Of a stretch of 32,000 nt of DNA, positions 18,933 to 25,217 are shown piece by piece. Made by a program: the position numbers and the translations under genes. Position 1 is the stretch's first letter; every line of letters starts with the position of its first letter. Source of the stretch: Kineococcus radiotolerans SRS30216 = ATCC BAA-149 (GTDB taxonomy: Bacteria; Actinomycetota; Actinomycetes; Actinomycetales; Kineococcaceae); assembly GCF_000017305.1 (NCBI RefSeq), contig NC_009664.2, positions 4,650,001-4,682,000 on the forward strand, written 5' to 3'. Under the pieces are notes generated by a model. The model was not told where the DNA came from and did no database searches. It was given only the letters and a program-made list of their open reading frames with translations.

Positions 18933-19152
18933 GCAGCAGGGTGTGAGTGACCATCGCCAGGAGTCACGGCGCAGCAGTGCTCTGGATGCCATCTCTCGTC
19001 CACCGACAACAGCTGTCTCACCCATCGGGGCCGGTCGCTGCGCCAGCAGGATCACCCGGACGTGCTCCCGGATCACCGGTGGAGCGGGGTCCGGTGAGTG
19101 AGGCAGCAACGCACCATCGACGCAGTCATACCCGAGGGGCAGGATGTGAGGC

Positions 19153-19872
19153 GTGGCTGAACCCGACGCTTCGTCCGAGCCGGTACCGAGCGTTCCCCCT
19201 GGCGCTGCCGCTACGTGGCGTCAGGTCAGTTGGCTCCAGCAGGCAGCGCAGTCGGTCCGAGGTGGGCTCCAGGTCCTCGACGTCATCACAGAGGCCGTCG
19301 CACCCGCCATCGCCAGTCACAGCGTTCGCGTCCTCCGCTACGCCCATGCACTGGCCTGCTCGGAGATGGCCCAGGAGAGACTGCAGGTGAGTCGTTCCCC
19401 GGCCGCGTTCGCCAGCTACCTCGACGACGGGACCTTGCTGACGGCGTGCTTGCTGCACGACGCCGGCGCCACCGCCGTGGGGGCGAGCTGGCAGCGTTTC
19501 GAGGTCCAGGGAGCCGACCGGGCCGCAGCGTTCGCTCGAGCCCACGGCTACTCCGAAGATCAGGTCCGGCACATCTGGGAGGCAGTGGCCCTACACACCT
19601 CCCCGCACATCGCCGAACGCATCCATCCGCTGGCGCGATGGGTGCGAGGCGGGGTCCTAGCAGATTTCGGGACCGACTTGATCCCTCCAGACCTGCGGAG
19701 ACGGACCGAGGCCGAGGTGCCGCGATTGGACGTCGAGCGCACCCTTAGCGGCATCGTCGTCGAACAGGCCTTGCGGGACGAACGGCGCGCTCCCTCGGGC
19801 AGCTGGCCGGCGGACCTGCTGGCGGCTCACCGAGCCTCAGCAGACGCTGATGCCCGGCTGTCCGCCTTCTGA
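19153..19872 (+). CDS. HD domain-containing protein (metal-dependent phosphohydrolase superfamily)
   Basis: His (ASHSVRVLRYAHAL) and HD (CLLHDAGA) motifs with a later His (ALHTSPH). Start uncertain (GTG 19153 or downstream). Confidence 0.75.
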   Translation: MAEPDASSEPVPSVPPGAAATWRQVSWLQQAAQSVRGGLQVLDVITEAVAPAIASHSVRVLRYAHALACSEMAQERLQVSRSPAAFASYLDDGTLLTACLLHDAGATAVGASWQRFEVQGADRAAAFARAHGYSEDQVRHIWEAVALHTSPHIAERIHPLARWVRGGVLADFGTDLIPPDLRRRTEAEVPRLDVERTLSGIVVEQALRDERRAPSGSWPADLLAAHRASADADARLSAF

Positions 19873-19887
19873 TCCGCAGGCCGGCCA

Positions 19888-19903
19888 GGCCGGCAAGCCG
19901 GCC
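19888..19903 (+). terminator. GC hairpin just after the HD gene stop
   Basis: GGCCGG (19888-19893), loop caag, CCGGCC (19898-19903), embedded in a 9-bp repeat (CAGGCCGGC x2, 19877-19894). Confidence 0.35.
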
Positions 19904-20061
19904 AGGCTGGTAAGGGTTGCCCGGTCTCGCCGCCGCACGGTGGTTGCCGGGTCGCCCCGCTGAGGGCCGTCGTGCTCTAGGCCCGCCCGGTCACTCCGCG
20001 CTCCGGTCCCGTCACGTCCCACGGTTCCGACACCTCGTCTGGACCGGCGTCCGTCCCGCTG

Positions 20062-20355
20062 GCACGGAGCACGGAGCACGGAGCACGGAGCACGGAGCAC
20101 GGAGCACGGAGCACGGAGCACGGAGCACGGAGCACGGAGCACGGAGCACGGAGCACGGAGCACGGAGCACGGAGCACGGAGCACGGAGCACGGAGCACGG
20201 AGCACGGAGCACGGAGCACGGAGCACGGAGCACGGAGCACGGGGCACGGGGCACGGGGCACGGGGCACGGGGCACGGGGCACGGGGCACGGGGCACGGGG
20301 CACGGGGCACGGGGCACGGGGCACGGGGCACGGGGCACGGGGCACGGGGCACGGC
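20062..20355. repeat. heptanucleotide minisatellite: 25x GCACGGA, 16x GCACGGG, 1x GCACGGC (42 units, 294 bp)
   Basis: Counted unit by unit: 20062-20236, 20237-20348, 20349-20355. No other substitutions or indels. Confidence 0.98.
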
Positions 20356-20583
20356 GTGCCCGTGCGCCGGTTCGGTGGTCCTTCAGGAGCCGGGTGTGCT
20401 CAGTCACGTGACGGATGCGTCAGCCATCGGTACCGGGCACGATCGTCTGGTCGTCGAAGCCCGATCAAGCACCGCGAGCGGTGTGGGCGCGCGCGGTGGC
20501 CCAAAAAACCATCACGACGGCGGGTAGCTGTCATGCACCAGCGGCGAGCCGCCGATGCACCTCGCGGACTGCGCGCACGATCG

Positions 20584-20610
20584 ATGACGCATGATCAATG
20601 ACGCATGATC
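20584..20610. promoter_or_regulatory. direct repeat ATGACGCATGATC x2 (14-bp period) in the MerR upstream region
   Basis: Copies at 20584-20596 and 20598-20610, 42-68 bp upstream of the MerR ORF start. The core TGACGCA also occurs inverted in the palindrome TGACG-gatg-CGTCA at 20409-20422. Confidence 0.4.
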
Positions 20611-20651
20611 GGCGATGAGTACACGGTGGGATCGGCAGGAGTCAGCGCAAG

Positions 20652-21248
20652 GTGATGATGAGGCACTCGGATGCTGATGAGCTGGTCACTGACGGACTGG
20701 TGATCCCTGACACGACCCCCTTGCCGCCAGTCAGCGTGGAGGTGCCGGCTGAAGGGTTGTCGATCGGGGAAGCAGCAGCCGCCTGTGGACTCAGCGTCGA
20801 CGCGTTGCGGTACTACGAGCGTGAGGGATTGACCAGGACCCCGCCGCAGAGGGCTTCCTCTGGTCAACGCCGCTACCACGCGCGAGACCTCGAGTGGCTC
20901 TCTGGAGTGATCATGCTGCGTGCTACCGGGATGCCCGTCCGCGACGTACGAGAATTCGCCGAACTGACCCGCCGCTCCGGCACTCAGGCCCAGGTGCTCG
21001 CAATCTTCGAAGCGCACCGGGAGAGAGTGATCGAGCAACTGCAACGCACCCAACGTCACCTAGCTGCCATTGATCAGAAGATCAGCTTCTACCGCAGCCA
21101 GGTGGGCTACGAGGATCGGCGCGGCCCGTCGCGACCGGCCCACGGGCCCACAGGTGGCGGCATGGACACCGGCGACGTCGGTGGCGACGTCGGTGGCGAC
21201 GTCGGTGACGGAGGCGGCATCGATGGCGGCACGGTTGGCAGGCCTTGA
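20652..21248 (+). CDS. MerR family transcriptional regulator
   Basis: MerR-type HTH (LSIGEAAAACGLSVDALRYYEREGL...RRYHARDLEWL) followed by a helical dimerisation region. Start GTG 20652 or ATG 20655/20658. C-terminal GDVGGDVGGDVG from a 12-bp x3 repeat (21171-21206). Confidence 0.85.
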   Translation: MMMRHSDADELVTDGLVIPDTTPLPPVSVEVPAEGLSIGEAAAACGLSVDALRYYEREGLTRTPPQRASSGQRRYHARDLEWLSGVIMLRATGMPVRDVREFAELTRRSGTQAQVLAIFEAHRERVIEQLQRTQRHLAAIDQKISFYRSQVGYEDRRGPSRPAHGPTGGGMDTGDVGGDVGGDVGDGGGIDGGTVGRP

Positions 21249-21490
21249 GTTCGTTCACAAGACCACTGGGTACCCGCCCGCCACAATGCGTAGCGGACCG
21301 GTCGGCCTCCGGCTCAGGGCTGTAGTCCCGGCTACGCAGCCCATGACTGGCATACTGAGGGGTTCACTTCGTCTGCATCACTGCATGCCTCCGGGAGCGC
21401 AGTCACCATCTCTCGCGGTCCGCTCCCTTCCAGCCTCCTCAGGCGCCGCTACCTGCACAGCCTCCGGGGCCAAAGCCTCCAGGACCCACG

Positions 21491-24259
21491 ATGATCGGCC
21501 GTGAGGTAGAGGTCGAGCGCATTCTGGGGCACCTGTACACCGTCCGAGACGCTTCCTCGTCGGCGGAACCAGGCACCGCCGTCCTCATCACCGGGGAAGC
21601 CGGCATCGGCAAGACCACGCTGCTGCACCACATCACCTCCCTCGCCCAGGCGGCGGACTTCAGCGTGCTGCGGTGCACCGGGGTTCAGCAGGAGCTCGGC
21701 ACCGGGTTTAGCGCCCTCCATGAGCTCCTGCGTCCCACCCTGGGACGCCTGCACCTGCTGCCGCACCAGCAGCGCGCCGCGCTCATGACGGTCTTCGGAC
21801 TCGACGACGGCACCAGCCCTCCGCCAGACCGGTTGCTGATCAACACAGCCACCCTGACCCTGCTGGAAGAGATCAGCGCCCAACAGCCATTGCTCGTGCT
21901 CGTGGAAGACCTGCAGTGGCTGGACCGCTCCAGCGCCTCCGTCTTGACCTTCCTCATCCGGCGCCTGGCCCACACCCGCACCCTGCTCCTGGCCACCATG
22001 CGCACCGGCGAAGGATCACAAGAGCGCTGGGCTGGACTCGGCATGGTCCACCTGCCCCTCGCAGCGTTGAGCCCGCAGGCCTGTGAGGCACTGATGGACG
22101 AGCTGACCCCACCTATCGACGCACGCACCCGCGAGGTGCTGCTACGAGAAGCCGGCGGCAACCCACTAGCGCTGACGGAGTTGGCCGCAGTCATCCAGGA
22201 CACGGACCTGCAATCCGGGGCGACGCTGCCGTTGCGCCTGCCGCTGCCTCAGCGGCTGGAGAAGGCGTTCCTGCAACAGCTCGCGCCGCTGCCCGAAGCC
22301 ACCCGACGCACCCTGCTGCTGGCTGCGGCCGGGGAAGACGCTCGACGCTCAGAAGTGATAGCCGCCGGCGCAGAGCTTGGATTGGTCCCCCTCGACCTCG
22401 ACCTCGCCGAAACCGCGGGCCTGATCAACGTCGAGGGTGAGCACCTGCGCTTCCGCCACCCACTGCTGCGCTCAGCCATCTACTCCTCCGCGCCCTACTC
22501 AGTGCGCCTGCAAGCACACCTGGTCCTGGCGGGAGCCATTCAGGACCCTGTCCGCGCAGCCTGGCACAAGGCAGCCGCCACACCCGCGCCCGACGAGGAG
22601 GTCGCCGCCGAACTGACCACCGCGGCCGACATCGCTCGCGCTCGCGGGGCTCTCATCGAGGCATCAGCCGCCTACGAGCGCGCCGCCGCCCTCTCGCCCA
22701 GCCCGCGTCAGAGACTGCAGCGTCTGGTCCAGGCCGCTGAGCTGGCGCGCCTGGCCGGGCGGCCTTCCCAGGCGAGCCGGCTGGGCGAGGAGGCCATGCC
22801 CTTGCTGATCGATCCCACCCGGCAACCCTCAGTGGCGGTGATGGCCGCGGTCACCCGCTGGCGCCTGAGCGCTGGCCGAGGAAGCTGGATGGAGCGGGTC
22901 ACCGACCTGGTAGACCTGGCTGAGCAGTTGAGGGGCGCGCAGCGCGATCAGCACCCCCTCGAACGGCTTTCCGCATTGACCGCTGCAGCGGTCGGCGTGT
23001 ACGTCCTGCAGCCCGCGGGAGCGCTGGCCGAGCGGGTCCGCGACGGGCTGCGTTCGCTGCAGCTGCCCGCGCCCGGCGATCCGACCGCATGGGCTGATCA
23101 ACAGGTCGGACTGATCATGCTTGATCCCCTCCGCTATGCCTCACGGTGGCGTGGGCGCCTAGCCGAGTTGACCTCGACGGTGAGCGGACCCAACCGGCTG
23201 GCGTCGGCGGCGGAGGCGATCCACGACCTCCCCTCCATGGCCAGCGCCTGGTCGGAGGCGGTCGAGCGCGCCCACTACTCCCGTGCCGTCAGCGAGGAGT
23301 GCCTAGCGTTGCACGGGCGAGCGTTGTCTCGAGTGCTGGGCGGTGATCTACCCGGCGCTCTCGCTGATGCGGGCCTGGCGCAACGGATCGCAGCCGACGC
23401 GCAACTGCCCATCATCCGCGCCGCGGGGCAGGTCGTGGCTTCCCGCATCCACACCTGCCGTGGTGACCTGCAGGCTGCTGCGAGGGCGCTGGGGGAAGCC
23501 GCGCAGGTCATCGGTCCCAGCCCAGTGGGCAAGCTGAACGCGGAGCTGAACTGGGCTGCCGGCCTGCTGGCTCTCACCGAGCACCGGCACTGGGACGCCT
23601 GGGTCCACCTGAACCAGACGCACTCCCACCCGGTCATCGCCGCGTGGGCCATCGCCGACCTGGCGCAGGCCGCCGTGCAGGTGGGGAAGGCAGCTGACGT
23701 CATCCCCCGGGTCCAGGTGCTGGCCGAGGCGAACCTGACCTACGGCTCCCCGCACCTGAGCCTGTTGCTCGAGCGCAGCCGAGCACTTCTCAGCCAAGGA
23801 GAACGCGCCGAAGCCGCCTTCCAGCGTGCTTTGACACACGGATCGGCAAGCGGCACCCCCATCGAGCTGGCCCGGACGCAGCTGGCCTATGGGCAGTGGC
23901 TGCGGCTGGCTGACCGCCCTGAGGAATCTCAGACCCACCTGAGCGCAGCTTTGCGGGCCTTCGAGGGGACCTCATCACGCCTGGGCATCGCCCGCACTGA
24001 GGCTGCTCTGCGCACGGCCGGCGTCGTCATGGCGCGGGGGCGGGGCGGGGCCTTGGACCCCGTGGACACCCTCAGCCCGCTGGAGCTGCAGGTTGCCCAG
24101 CTGGCAACGACGGGATTGAGCGAGGAGGAGATCGCGGATCGCATCTACCTCTCCCACCGCGCCGTGAGCAGTCACTTGCACCGAGCGTTGGCCAAGTTGA
24201 ACCTCACCACTCGAGCTGAACTACGCCAAGCCTTCGCTCCGCGTGCACGGCCGATGTGA
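21491..24259 (+). CDS. LAL-type LuxR family regulator, paralog 3
   Basis: MIGREVEV start, Walker A GEAGIGKT, LLVLVEDLQWLD, GGNPLAL. C-terminal HTH LSPLELQVAQLATTGLSEEEIADRIYLSHRAVSSHLHRALAKLNL. Confidence 0.9.
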   Translation: MIGREVEVERILGHLYTVRDASSSAEPGTAVLITGEAGIGKTTLLHHITSLAQAADFSVLRCTGVQQELGTGFSALHELLRPTLGRLHLLPHQQRAALMTVFGLDDGTSPPPDRLLINTATLTLLEEISAQQPLLVLVEDLQWLDRSSASVLTFLIRRLAHTRTLLLATMRTGEGSQERWAGLGMVHLPLAALSPQACEALMDELTPPIDARTREVLLREAGGNPLALTELAAVIQDTDLQSGATLPLRLPLPQRLEKAFLQQLAPLPEATRRTLLLAAAGEDARRSEVIAAGAELGLVPLDLDLAETAGLINVEGEHLRFRHPLLRSAIYSSAPYSVRLQAHLVLAGAIQDPVRAAWHKAAATPAPDEEVAAELTTAADIARARGALIEASAAYERAAALSPSPRQRLQRLVQAAELARLAGRPSQASRLGEEAMPLLIDPTRQPSVAVMAAVTRWRLSAGRGSWMERVTDLVDLAEQLRGAQRDQHPLERLSALTAAAVGVYVLQPAGALAERVRDGLRSLQLPAPGDPTAWADQQVGLIMLDPLRYASRWRGRLAELTSTVSGPNRLASAAEAIHDLPSMASAWSEAVERAHYSRAVSEECLALHGRALSRVLGGDLPGALADAGLAQRIAADAQLPIIRAAGQVVASRIHTCRGDLQAAARALGEAAQVIGPSPVGKLNAELNWAAGLLALTEHRHWDAWVHLNQTHSHPVIAAWAIADLAQAAVQVGKAADVIPRVQVLAEANLTYGSPHLSLLLERSRALLSQGERAEAAFQRALTHGSASGTPIELARTQLAYGQWLRLADRPEESQTHLSAALRAFEGTSSRLGIARTEAALRTAGVVMARGRGGALDPVDTLSPLELQVAQLATTGLSEEEIADRIYLSHRAVSSHLHRALAKLNLTTRAELRQAFAPRARPM

Positions 24260-24282
24260 GACGCGACCACCCCGACCCCGAG

Positions 24283-24315
24283 CCCGGTGCCCGGTGCCCG
24301 GTGCCGGTGCCGGTG
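24283..24315. repeat. short tandem repeat CCCGGTG x3 then CCGGTG x2
   Basis: Read directly. Lies in the gap between the LuxR paralog 3 stop and the sigma gene. Confidence 0.8.
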
Positions 24316-24500: not shown

Positions 24501-24992
24501 GTGGAACTGAACTACGAGGAGTTCGTCGCCGCCCGCGGACCGGCGCTGCAGCGCCTGGCCCGCGGGCTGCTGCGCAACCCCTCCGACGCCGAGGACGTCG
24601 TGCAGGACGTCCTGGCCAAGGCCCTGCTGAAGTGGAACCGCATCAGCGCCGCCGACGACCCGATCGCCTACGTCAACCACATGCTGGTCAACGAGTCCAC
24701 CTCCTTCTGGCGCCGCACCGCGCGCCGGGAGGACCCCCGCGCGCCCGAGGACCTCCCCGTCTCCGCCGCCGCGGACGCCACCCAGCGCTTCCTCGACCGC
24801 GACGCGCTGCTCGCCGCGGTGCGCACGCTGCCGACCAAGCAGCGCTCGGTGGTCGCCCTGCGCTACCTCGACGAGATGGACGACGAGCGCATCGCCGACA
24901 TCCTCGACATGACCACCGGTGCGGTGCGCGTCAACGCCAGCCGCGGGCTGGCGACCCTGCGCGCGGCCATGAAGCTCCCCGCCACCGTCTGA
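24501..24992 (+). CDS. ECF-type sigma-70 family RNA polymerase sigma factor (actinobacterial SigE-like subfamily)
   Basis: GTG 24501 gives VELNYEEFVAARGPALQRLA..., the N-terminus typical of this subfamily. Region 2 (AEDVVQDVLAKALLKWNRI...YVNHMLVNE) and region 4 (LPTKQRSVVALRYLDEMDDERIADILDMTTGAVRVNASRGLATLR). Confidence 0.88.
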   Translation: MELNYEEFVAARGPALQRLARGLLRNPSDAEDVVQDVLAKALLKWNRISAADDPIAYVNHMLVNESTSFWRRTARREDPRAPEDLPVSAAADATQRFLDRDALLAAVRTLPTKQRSVVALRYLDEMDDERIADILDMTTGAVRVNASRGLATLRAAMKLPATV

Positions 24993-25022
24993 CCCGCCAC
25001 CGTCTGACCCGCCACCGTCTGA
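24978..25022. repeat. 15-bp tandem repeat CCCGCCACCGTCTGA x3, reiterating the last four codons plus the stop codon of the sigma gene
   Basis: Units at 24978-24992, 24993-25007 and 25008-25022. Each reads P-A-T-V-stop in the sigma reading frame. Confidence 0.95.
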
Positions 25023-25217
25023 CCCTGTCCCCGCGACGGTCAGGCCGGGCAGGAGCCGGTTCGTGGTGCTGACGGATGTTGCTCTGCTCACCCGTGCGTC
25101 ACGTGACGGATGCACAGGGGTCACCGCCGCTGCCACGGTGGAGCAACCCGACGCGGCGGGCCTGTCGTCGCGACGTGGCGTCTTCCAACCGGCACGTGCA
25201 CCTGCGAGGAGCAGACA

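Follow-up and report, generated by a model that had tools for sequence, protein, structure and literature searches.

A long two-block heptanucleotide array in an intergenic spacer of Kineococcus radiotolerans and its copy-number variation among close relatives

How does a run of 294 bases come to repeat one heptamer without irregularity between two bacterial genes, and does such a run serve the cell that carries it? The question is raised by a stretch of 32,000 nucleotides from Kineococcus radiotolerans SRS30216 (NC_009664.2, positions 4,650,001 to 4,682,000), referred to here as the window and numbered from its first letter, in which a tandem array of the unit GCACGGR occupies positions 20062-20355 of the forward strand, between a gene for an HD-domain protein and one for a MerR-family regulator. 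An original prediction, made from the letters of the window, had drawn attention to the array and read it as a contingency repeat. We consider it probable that the array belongs to the hypermutable heptanucleotide simple sequence repeats, is mainly a by-product of mutation and has no dedicated function. A role in regulation, a role as a quadruplex-forming element, an error in the copy number and a repeat within a protein each make different predictions about the locus, and they are weighed below where the evidence that bears on them is given.

Structure and non-coding position of the array

The array consists of two homogeneous blocks and a closing unit, all on the forward strand. The first block (20062-20236) contains 25 perfect copies of GCACGGA, the second (20237-20348) contains 16 perfect copies of GCACGGG and is equivalent to (GGGGCAC)16, and a single GCACGGC (20349-20355) ends the series, this last unit being kept in every allele that carries the array. 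The blocks were read directly from the sequence and the units counted again by script, giving 42 units in 294 bases with zero further substitutions or indels; the unit counts and block boundaries first put forward for this locus thus proved exact. Tandem Repeats Finder reports the repeat at 20062-20354 with a period of 7, 41.9 copies, 99% matches and a score of 474, the second-best repeat of the window scoring 96. A three-unit pattern with at most two mismatches gave 40 matches, all of them within the array, with 0.00 expected from 100 dinucleotide-preserving shuffles. Outside the array the word GCACGG is found 23 times on the forward strand of the 32-kb window, compared with about 25 expected from base composition, and one array of the GCACGGR unit is present in this window, which is the stretch of the genome covered. 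The density of tandem repeats in the window is ordinary, at 5.6 per 10 kb compared with 4.7 in other loci. The earlier exclusion of CRISPR and of MIRU or REP elements is retained, as the units are 7 nt long, contiguous and free of spacers, whereas in a CRISPR array direct repeats of about 24-48 nt would alternate with unique spacers, the two being of similar length.

Support from other sequence data comes from independent Illumina reads of the same organism, available as Logan contigs assembled at k = 31 (SRR5887249, SRR5887262, SRR5887284, SRR9436870, SRR1137094 and SRR1151096). All k = 31 assemblies of the organism break about 30 nt inside the array. The left-hand contigs (L001 and L127-L130) terminate in GCACGGA units, and the right-hand contigs (L002 and L004) open with GCACGGG units that are followed by GCACGGC and the unique flank. 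These data confirm both edges of the array and both variants of the unit, the count of 42 lying beyond what such contigs cover. A scan of Joint Genome Institute (JGI) metagenome contigs for the right array junction gave no match.

The array lies in a non-coding, poorly conserved spacer. It begins 189 nt past the HD stop codon and ends 296 nt short of the start of the MerR gene; the gap between the two genes measures 779 bp and both are on the forward strand, in agreement with the original prediction of an HD stop at 19872 and a MerR start near 20652. The start at 20652 is credible because the 30-residue N-terminal extension of the MerR protein is conserved at the protein level in a homologue of 82% identity. 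Could the repeat nonetheless be part of a protein? All six frames are open across the array, and the spanning open reading frames (ORFs) of 122-171 amino acids would place a heptad peptide, ARSTEHG on the forward strand or SVLRAPC on the reverse, in a small and possibly phase-variable product. The numbering of GenBank accessions moreover implies that one extra coding sequence, besides MerR, is annotated between the HD gene and the LuxR-type gene that follows MerR. Set against this, no Pfam family was found above threshold in the spanning ORFs, all four are absent from a collection of 15 billion proteins, and the codon-position GC signal is weak or collapses across 19873-20651. The lengths of the alleles described below (28, 35, 49, 56 and 294 nt) differ modulo 3, so that no single frame is kept across the array, and we give a coding repeat practically no chance of being correct.

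Searches for other signals in the spacer gave little. Scans for sigma-70 promoters and intrinsic terminators across 19700-20800 found none, which is weak evidence for an actinobacterium, and a search of Rfam at a permissive threshold across 19000-21500 returned a single match at chance level, outside the array. SARP-type binding sites were considered separately: they need heptameric direct repeats at 11-nt spacing near the -35 position, together with a regulator that has a SARP domain (PMC5930380). The units here are contiguous with a period of 7, and the SARP DNA-binding domain is not found in the three paralogous large regulators nearby, whose domains are AAA_16 and GerE (LuxR-type) only; this candidate was rejected.

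Variation among relatives and a likely origin

Relatives of the locus were reached through the members of 90%-identity protein clusters, which led to metagenome contigs of project PRJEB13142. In the literature no account of this array or of the project was found, and the genome paper contains no mention of repeats (PMC2587704). Four contigs carry the array in short form: (GCACGGA)3 with the terminal GCACGGC in L131 (run ERR1353139, 4 units), (GCACGGA)4 with GCACGGC in L133 (ERR1353138, 5 units), (GCACGGA)6 with GCACGGC in L134 (ERR1358755, 7 units) and (GCACGGA)7 with GCACGGC in L125 (ERR1358754, 8 units), set beside (GCACGGA)25, (GCACGGG)16 and GCACGGC in the reference strain. The junctions of the array are identical in all four contigs and the window, the flanks match the window at 96.2-97.3% identity, and L125, which at 3951 bp covers the hydrolase, HD and MerR genes and the start of the LuxR-type gene, has the same gene order as the window. 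Because 4, 5, 7 and 8 units are found, as against 42, at the same place in contigs that are 96-97% identical, the locus is a genuine variable-number tandem repeat (VNTR), and the copy-number polymorphism suspected from the reference sequence is borne out.

The same contigs bear on the age of the two blocks. They contain A-type units and the terminal C-type unit, and none of them has a single G-type unit. As the arrays of the relatives are short and have no G-block, both the large expansion and the G-type block arose recently and are confined to the lineage of the reference strain, which upholds the earlier proposal that the variants expanded separately and recently. In L134 the 642 nt upstream of the array are 99.7% identical to the window and the downstream sequence 97.0%, a difference that suggests either recombination in or close to the array or a chimeric metagenome contig whose two parts meet at the repeat. 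A more distant relative, L135, whose MerR protein is 82% identical, keeps the HD-MerR gene pair around a spacer of 338 nt that has no array.

The sequence at the 3' edge of the array points to where the repeat may have come from. Directly after the terminal unit stands GTGCCCGTGC (20356-20365), in which about 1.5 units recur in inverted orientation and with which the last units of the array can pair to form a hairpin (20338-20369, forward strand) with the loop GGC. The predicted energy of this hairpin is -24.7 kcal/mol in the window (z -2.2) and -21.4 kcal/mol in L125 (z -2.5), and the invariant terminal GCACGGC unit belongs to it. The left arm, GCACGG(A/G)GCAC, is a natural seed for slippage because the unit is already present 1.5 times within it, and since the right arm is able to pair with any unit of the G-block, many looped-out intermediates would be possible. 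The hairpin is likely to have been the seed of the array.

A history of the locus may be outlined from these features. The array would probably have started from the 5' side of a short hairpin, GCACGG(A)GCAC-GGC-GTGCCCGTGC, where 1.5 copies of the unit were already present, and would since have grown and shrunk by slipped-strand mispairing or by unequal exchange during replication or repair. The relatives hold 3-7 A-type units. In the lineage of the sequenced strain the array expanded to 42 units, and there one A-to-G change in a single unit could have been copied locally into the block of 16. Two pure blocks would result because slippage copies neighbouring units only. Variation in other short repeats of the window among the same relatives was also counted in favour of the array as a mutable repeat formed in this way.

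Several points weigh against reading the array as an unselected, hypermutable repeat. Perfect purity over 294 bp would also suit a selected role, as would a site on the sense strand between co-directional genes, which G-rich heptamers elsewhere favour (PMC4692102). The count of 42 rests on a single finished reference, of which the Illumina contigs confirm the edges alone. The short alleles were read from metagenome contigs assembled from short reads (MEGAHIT, with k127 in the contig names), an approach that could in principle collapse a repeat and so shorten the alleles, and two of their periodic lengths, 27 and 48 nt, equal the shortest traversal that would be expected for k values of 27 and 47.

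The last two of these points lead to the proposal that the array is real while its copy number is wrong, 42 units or 4-8 units having arisen through slippage during cloning or collapse during assembly. In its favour, all of the k = 31 assemblies stop within the array, no short-read set confirms 42 units, and two of the short alleles have the minimal traversal length just described. The other two periodic lengths, 34 and 55 nt, match no k of the assembler series, and the four alleles, from four different runs, carry different linked single-nucleotide polymorphisms; collapse during assembly is for these reasons unlikely. For the long allele, independent Illumina data bear out the two blocks at both edges. 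Finishing of the reference genome was the work of the Joint Genome Institute (PMC2587704). An array of 294 bp fits inside one Sanger read, and Sanger reads are presumably what the SRS30216 sequence was built from. On balance an artefact of copy number appears very improbable to us.

Heptanucleotide arrays elsewhere and the question of function

The original prediction could place the array in no known class of repeat. This no longer holds, as heptanucleotide arrays have already been described, Actinobacteria included, and arrays of the GCACGGR unit itself are widespread. When one genome per species was scanned for runs of at least three GCACGGR units, at least 120 stretches were found, in Streptomyces and other Actinomycetota, Lysobacterales, Planctomycetota, Bacteroidota, Myxococcota, Alicyclobacillus and others. 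Among the matches listed, most arrays have 3-8 units and the longest have 21 (Alicyclobacillus, L093), 17 (L104) and 13 (Streptomyces, L040), the last with the A/G block pattern A8 G4 A1; many sit in compound arrays with adjoining blocks of different heptamers, and in high-GC loci 95 of 96 arrays have no coding signal on at least one side. An inverted copy of the unit beside the array accompanies 4 of 128 arrays elsewhere in the same set, which rules it out as a general trait of such arrays and makes it particular to the Kineococcus locus. The preference for seven extends beyond this one unit: in about 0.9 Mb of GCACGGR loci, period-7 arrays of other units outnumber those of every other period, and at more than 300 nt from the retrieving arrays there are 14 of period 7, 8 of period 8 and 4 of period 6.

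Abrupt switches between pure heptamer blocks were seen in the compound arrays at 1031-1264 of L093 (Alicyclobacillus sp. ALC3), 20-158 of L115 and 1368-1695 of L051, examples being TGGGCAC x13 followed by GCACGGA x21 and GAGCAGG x20 followed by GCACGGA x6. Because these arrays change from one pure block to another, a two-block architecture is common in the heptamer class. In several Lysobacterales metagenome-assembled genomes (L032, L036, L061, L062, L073, L075, L095, L098 and L100) the GCACGGG arrays are followed directly by a shared AAAGGCTAC/G... sequence, and many loci occur per genome, with 8 in JALHRS01 and 6 in JBFWOF01 among the matches listed; the heptamer array there seems to belong to a larger dispersed element. 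An 8-kb sequence of Streptomyces youssoufiensis (L085) has six separate GCACGGR arrays, a 5.7-kb contig (L066) has arrays at both ends, and Streptomyces sp. HSW2009 has arrays on four contigs, so that some Streptomyces genomes seem to be very rich in the unit.

The class to which these arrays belong has been surveyed before. As far as the account of Mrazek, Guo and Shah 2007 given in PMC4679880 and PMC4692102 goes, heptanucleotide repeats are the commonest of the long-unit (5-11 nt) simple sequence repeats (LSSR5-11), which are associated with large, high-GC genomes of free-living non-pathogens; three Actinobacteria are among the ten richest genomes; and slippage of the polymerase over a contact of 7 nt was proposed as their source. 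By its iteration, its variation among relatives and its non-coding site, the Kineococcus array is a heptanucleotide LSSR5-11 and a VNTR. It shares with the class the perfect head-to-tail 7-nt unit, the non-coding position, the large, high-GC and non-pathogenic host, the variation in length and the proposed slippage. It differs in being at the extreme of size, its 42 units comparing with 26 or fewer in the best-studied example and with 21 in the longest GCACGGR array elsewhere among the matches listed, and in having clean two-block variants and an adjoining inverted copy of its own unit.

The best-studied example is that of Rehm et al. 2015, who described the G-rich heptamers GGGAATC in Xanthomonas and GGGGA(C/T)T in Nostoc, in arrays of 2-26 units that form G-quadruplexes in vitro, lie preferentially between co-directional genes and vary in length among close relatives; no function was identified for them, nor any link to phase variation (PMC4692102). 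The array of Kineococcus resembles these in its G-rich 7-nt unit, its variable copies, its co-directional neighbours and the G-rich strand being the sense strand past a stop codon. Its unit is GGGGCAC or GGAGCAC, however, with tracts of three or more Gs in the derived G-block only, and the preference of those heptamers for four units is not found here. The short tandemly repeated repetitive (STRR) sequences of cyanobacteria and the TAACTGA repeats of Beggiatoaceae are likewise intergenic tandem heptamers with compound blocks that break assemblies, but they form hundreds of sets of 2-6 copies, with one favoured unit per genome, and often stand just before start codons (PMC4679880), whereas the array described here is single, very long and about 300 nt from the next start codon. 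With the VNTRs of 6-9 bp units used for multilocus VNTR analysis, for example in Coxiella and Vibrio cholerae, it has in common a fixed locus, conserved flanks and copies that differ among close strains; those are typing markers of pathogens, and this is a previously unnoted array in an environmental actinobacterium. Pure 7-nt arrays of considerable length, with frequent changes in copy number, are also found in the neuO gene of Escherichia coli K1 (PMC13001214, PMC9659370), but there the repeat is inside a coding region and in frame only at multiples of three copies, and here no gene runs through the array.

Comparison with such switches raises the possibility that the locus is a regulatory contingency locus, in which a gain or loss of units would alter spacing or structure in front of the MerR and LuxR-type genes and so switch or tune their expression as a form of population-level bet-hedging. 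The array is hypervariable among close relatives and precedes two co-directional regulator genes, and simple repeats in promoters or 5' regions act in this way in several pathogens (PMC4679880, PMC4692102). Yet the end of the array is 296 nt from the MerR start, no promoter consensus overlaps it, it is not inside a coding region, and the neighbouring genes do not encode surface or host-interaction functions. Comparable G-rich heptamers have no link to phase variation (Rehm et al., PMC4692102), and the relative L135, which has no array, retains the same gene pair. What is conserved upstream of MerR lies elsewhere: the blocks shared with L135, at 20396-20418 and about 20540-20650, are all downstream of the array. 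The first of them, GTGCTCAGTCACGTGACGGATGC, is on the forward strand 41 nt 3' of the array, contains the perfect palindrome GTCACGTGAC (20403-20412) and is kept in the 97%-identical relatives as well as in L135, although the sequence around it is not conserved; it may be a protein-binding site. The contingency reading of the original prediction is unsupported on these grounds, there being no conserved ORF spanning the array, no promoter or terminator consensus, and no conserved block of the MerR upstream region on the 5' side of the array, and we regard a regulatory switch as unlikely.

The G-block has a second property that could have been selected. Its 16 GGGG tracts are separated by 3-nt CAC loops and fit the pattern of at least four consecutive tracts of three or more Gs. 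Under the G-quadruplex model of ViennaRNA the block is predicted to fold as RNA into four tandem four-layer quadruplexes at -124.3 kcal/mol, compared with -29.9 kcal/mol without quadruplexes, and the result with DNA parameters is similar. The A-block gains nothing under the same model, and it and the alleles of the relatives have GG tracts only. The G-rich strand is the sense strand of the HD and MerR genes. Thus (GGGGCAC)16 could fold into up to four tandem G-quadruplexes on the sense DNA, or on RNA if the spacer is transcribed, and the predicted structures might impede transcription or replication through the spacer as a side effect.

On these predictions a selected quadruplex element has been envisaged, with the G-block as a terminator or insulator, or as a signal in replication or recombination that is perhaps relevant to radiation resistance. 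The predicted stabilisation of about 94 kcal/mol across 16 tracts with 3-nt loops speaks for it, and so does a placement on the sense strand, past a stop codon and between co-directional genes, that matches the quadruplex-forming heptamers of PMC4692102. But the block is missing from all four close relatives, which have GG tracts and no predicted quadruplex; as these relatives do without the G-block, a quadruplex role can be neither the ancestral nor the conserved function of the locus and is at most a new property of this strain. The end of the HD transcript, moreover, is already offered by a strong GC-rich hairpin of 9-bp repeats, CAGGCCGGC, which lies just 3' of the HD stop codon (19880-19911, forward strand; -28.2 kcal/mol, z -3.3). 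Its sequence varies among relatives, and it is the likelier place for the HD transcript to end. We are accordingly doubtful of a selected quadruplex element, to much the same degree as of the regulatory switch. A narrower proposal is that the 42-unit expansion and the quadruplex block together are adaptive in this strain and would serve, on the sense strand, as a barrier or insulator to transcription or to replication and repair, tunable by copy number, between the HD gene and the MerR/LuxR pair. We think this has only a slim chance of being right; were it true, a contingency-like switch would be present in a free-living, non-pathogenic and radiation-resistant actinobacterium.

We prefer to think of the array as a mutable repeat of a known class, in which what is new is an unusually long and pure heptamer array with copy variation and a newly arisen, quadruplex-capable block. 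As such it bears on why units of 7 nt dominate the longer simple repeats of bacteria and on whether such arrays act at all. The sole proposal cited for the dominance of seven is that this length matches the segment of DNA held by the polymerase (PMC4679880, PMC4692102). The locus offers a clean natural example, with one ancestral unit type, five allele sizes from 4 to 42 units among sequences of about 97% identity, and a dated variant block, in a culturable organism for which many public resequencing runs exist. It could be used for direct measurement of heptamer slippage rates and for testing any effect of a new tandem G-quadruplex block on neighbouring genes. On a practical level, it is a typing marker for Kineococcus radiotolerans-like strains and a predictable break point in short-read assemblies.

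Neighbouring genes and further repeats

The genes on either side of the array were assigned from domain searches. The upstream neighbour (19153-19872, forward strand) matches Pfam HD (E 1.3e-06), and its product matches ABS03795.1 / WP_012087987 of Kineococcus radiotolerans at 100% identity. Sequenced genomes offer no close homologue of this gene, and the best match after its own entry is a metagenomic sequence of 75% identity. The MerR-family gene (20652-21248, forward strand) matches Pfam MerR_1 (E 3.4e-15) and was aligned with its relatives. It is followed by the gene for a LuxR-type regulator with an AAA_16 ATPase domain (21491-24259). The window is part of the linear chromosome of the strain (PMC2587704), and its orientation is opposite to the GenBank gene order. 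The neighbourhood consists of accessory genes, for an aldo-keto reductase, an alpha/beta hydrolase, the HD and MerR proteins, the three large regulators with AAA_16 and LuxR-type domains, oxidoreductases, an MFS transporter and an ECF-type sigma factor. No integrase or transposase is found among the genes of the window, and a mobile-element or island context is unsupported. The GC content of the window is 69.4%, below the mean of 74.2% for the 4.76-Mb genome (PMC2587704), and despite the absence of visible mobility genes the region may be horizontally acquired or a fast-evolving accessory region.

Several smaller repeats lie in the same neighbourhood. An imperfect 14-bp direct repeat, CGCATGATCGATGA, is present 2.7 times at 20574-20611, 40-80 nt before the MerR start, and is partly kept in L135; it could be an operator or promoter region. 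Within the MerR gene, a perfect in-frame 12-bp repeat, GGCGACGTCGGT, occurs 3.1 times at 21171-21207 and encodes GDVG repeats in the C-terminal tail of the protein. Three copies are found in the window and in L125 (198 amino acids) and two in L133 and L134 (194 and 192 amino acids).

A second small array, (GCCCGGT)3 followed by (GCCGGT)2, is located at 24282-24315, 23 nt past the stop codon of the LuxR-type gene. The relative L136 has hexamer-like units only at this site (GCCGGT GCCGGT GCCAGT), so that this array varies as well, its heptamer seemingly born from a hexamer. Two further tandem repeats have a core motif in common and may belong to a dispersed repeat family. One, CCCGCCACCGTCTGA, is present as 3.2 perfect copies at 24978-25025, where the ECF sigma-factor gene ends; the other, CCCGCACCCGTCTGACC, is present as 2.3 copies at 803-841, close to the beginning of the window.

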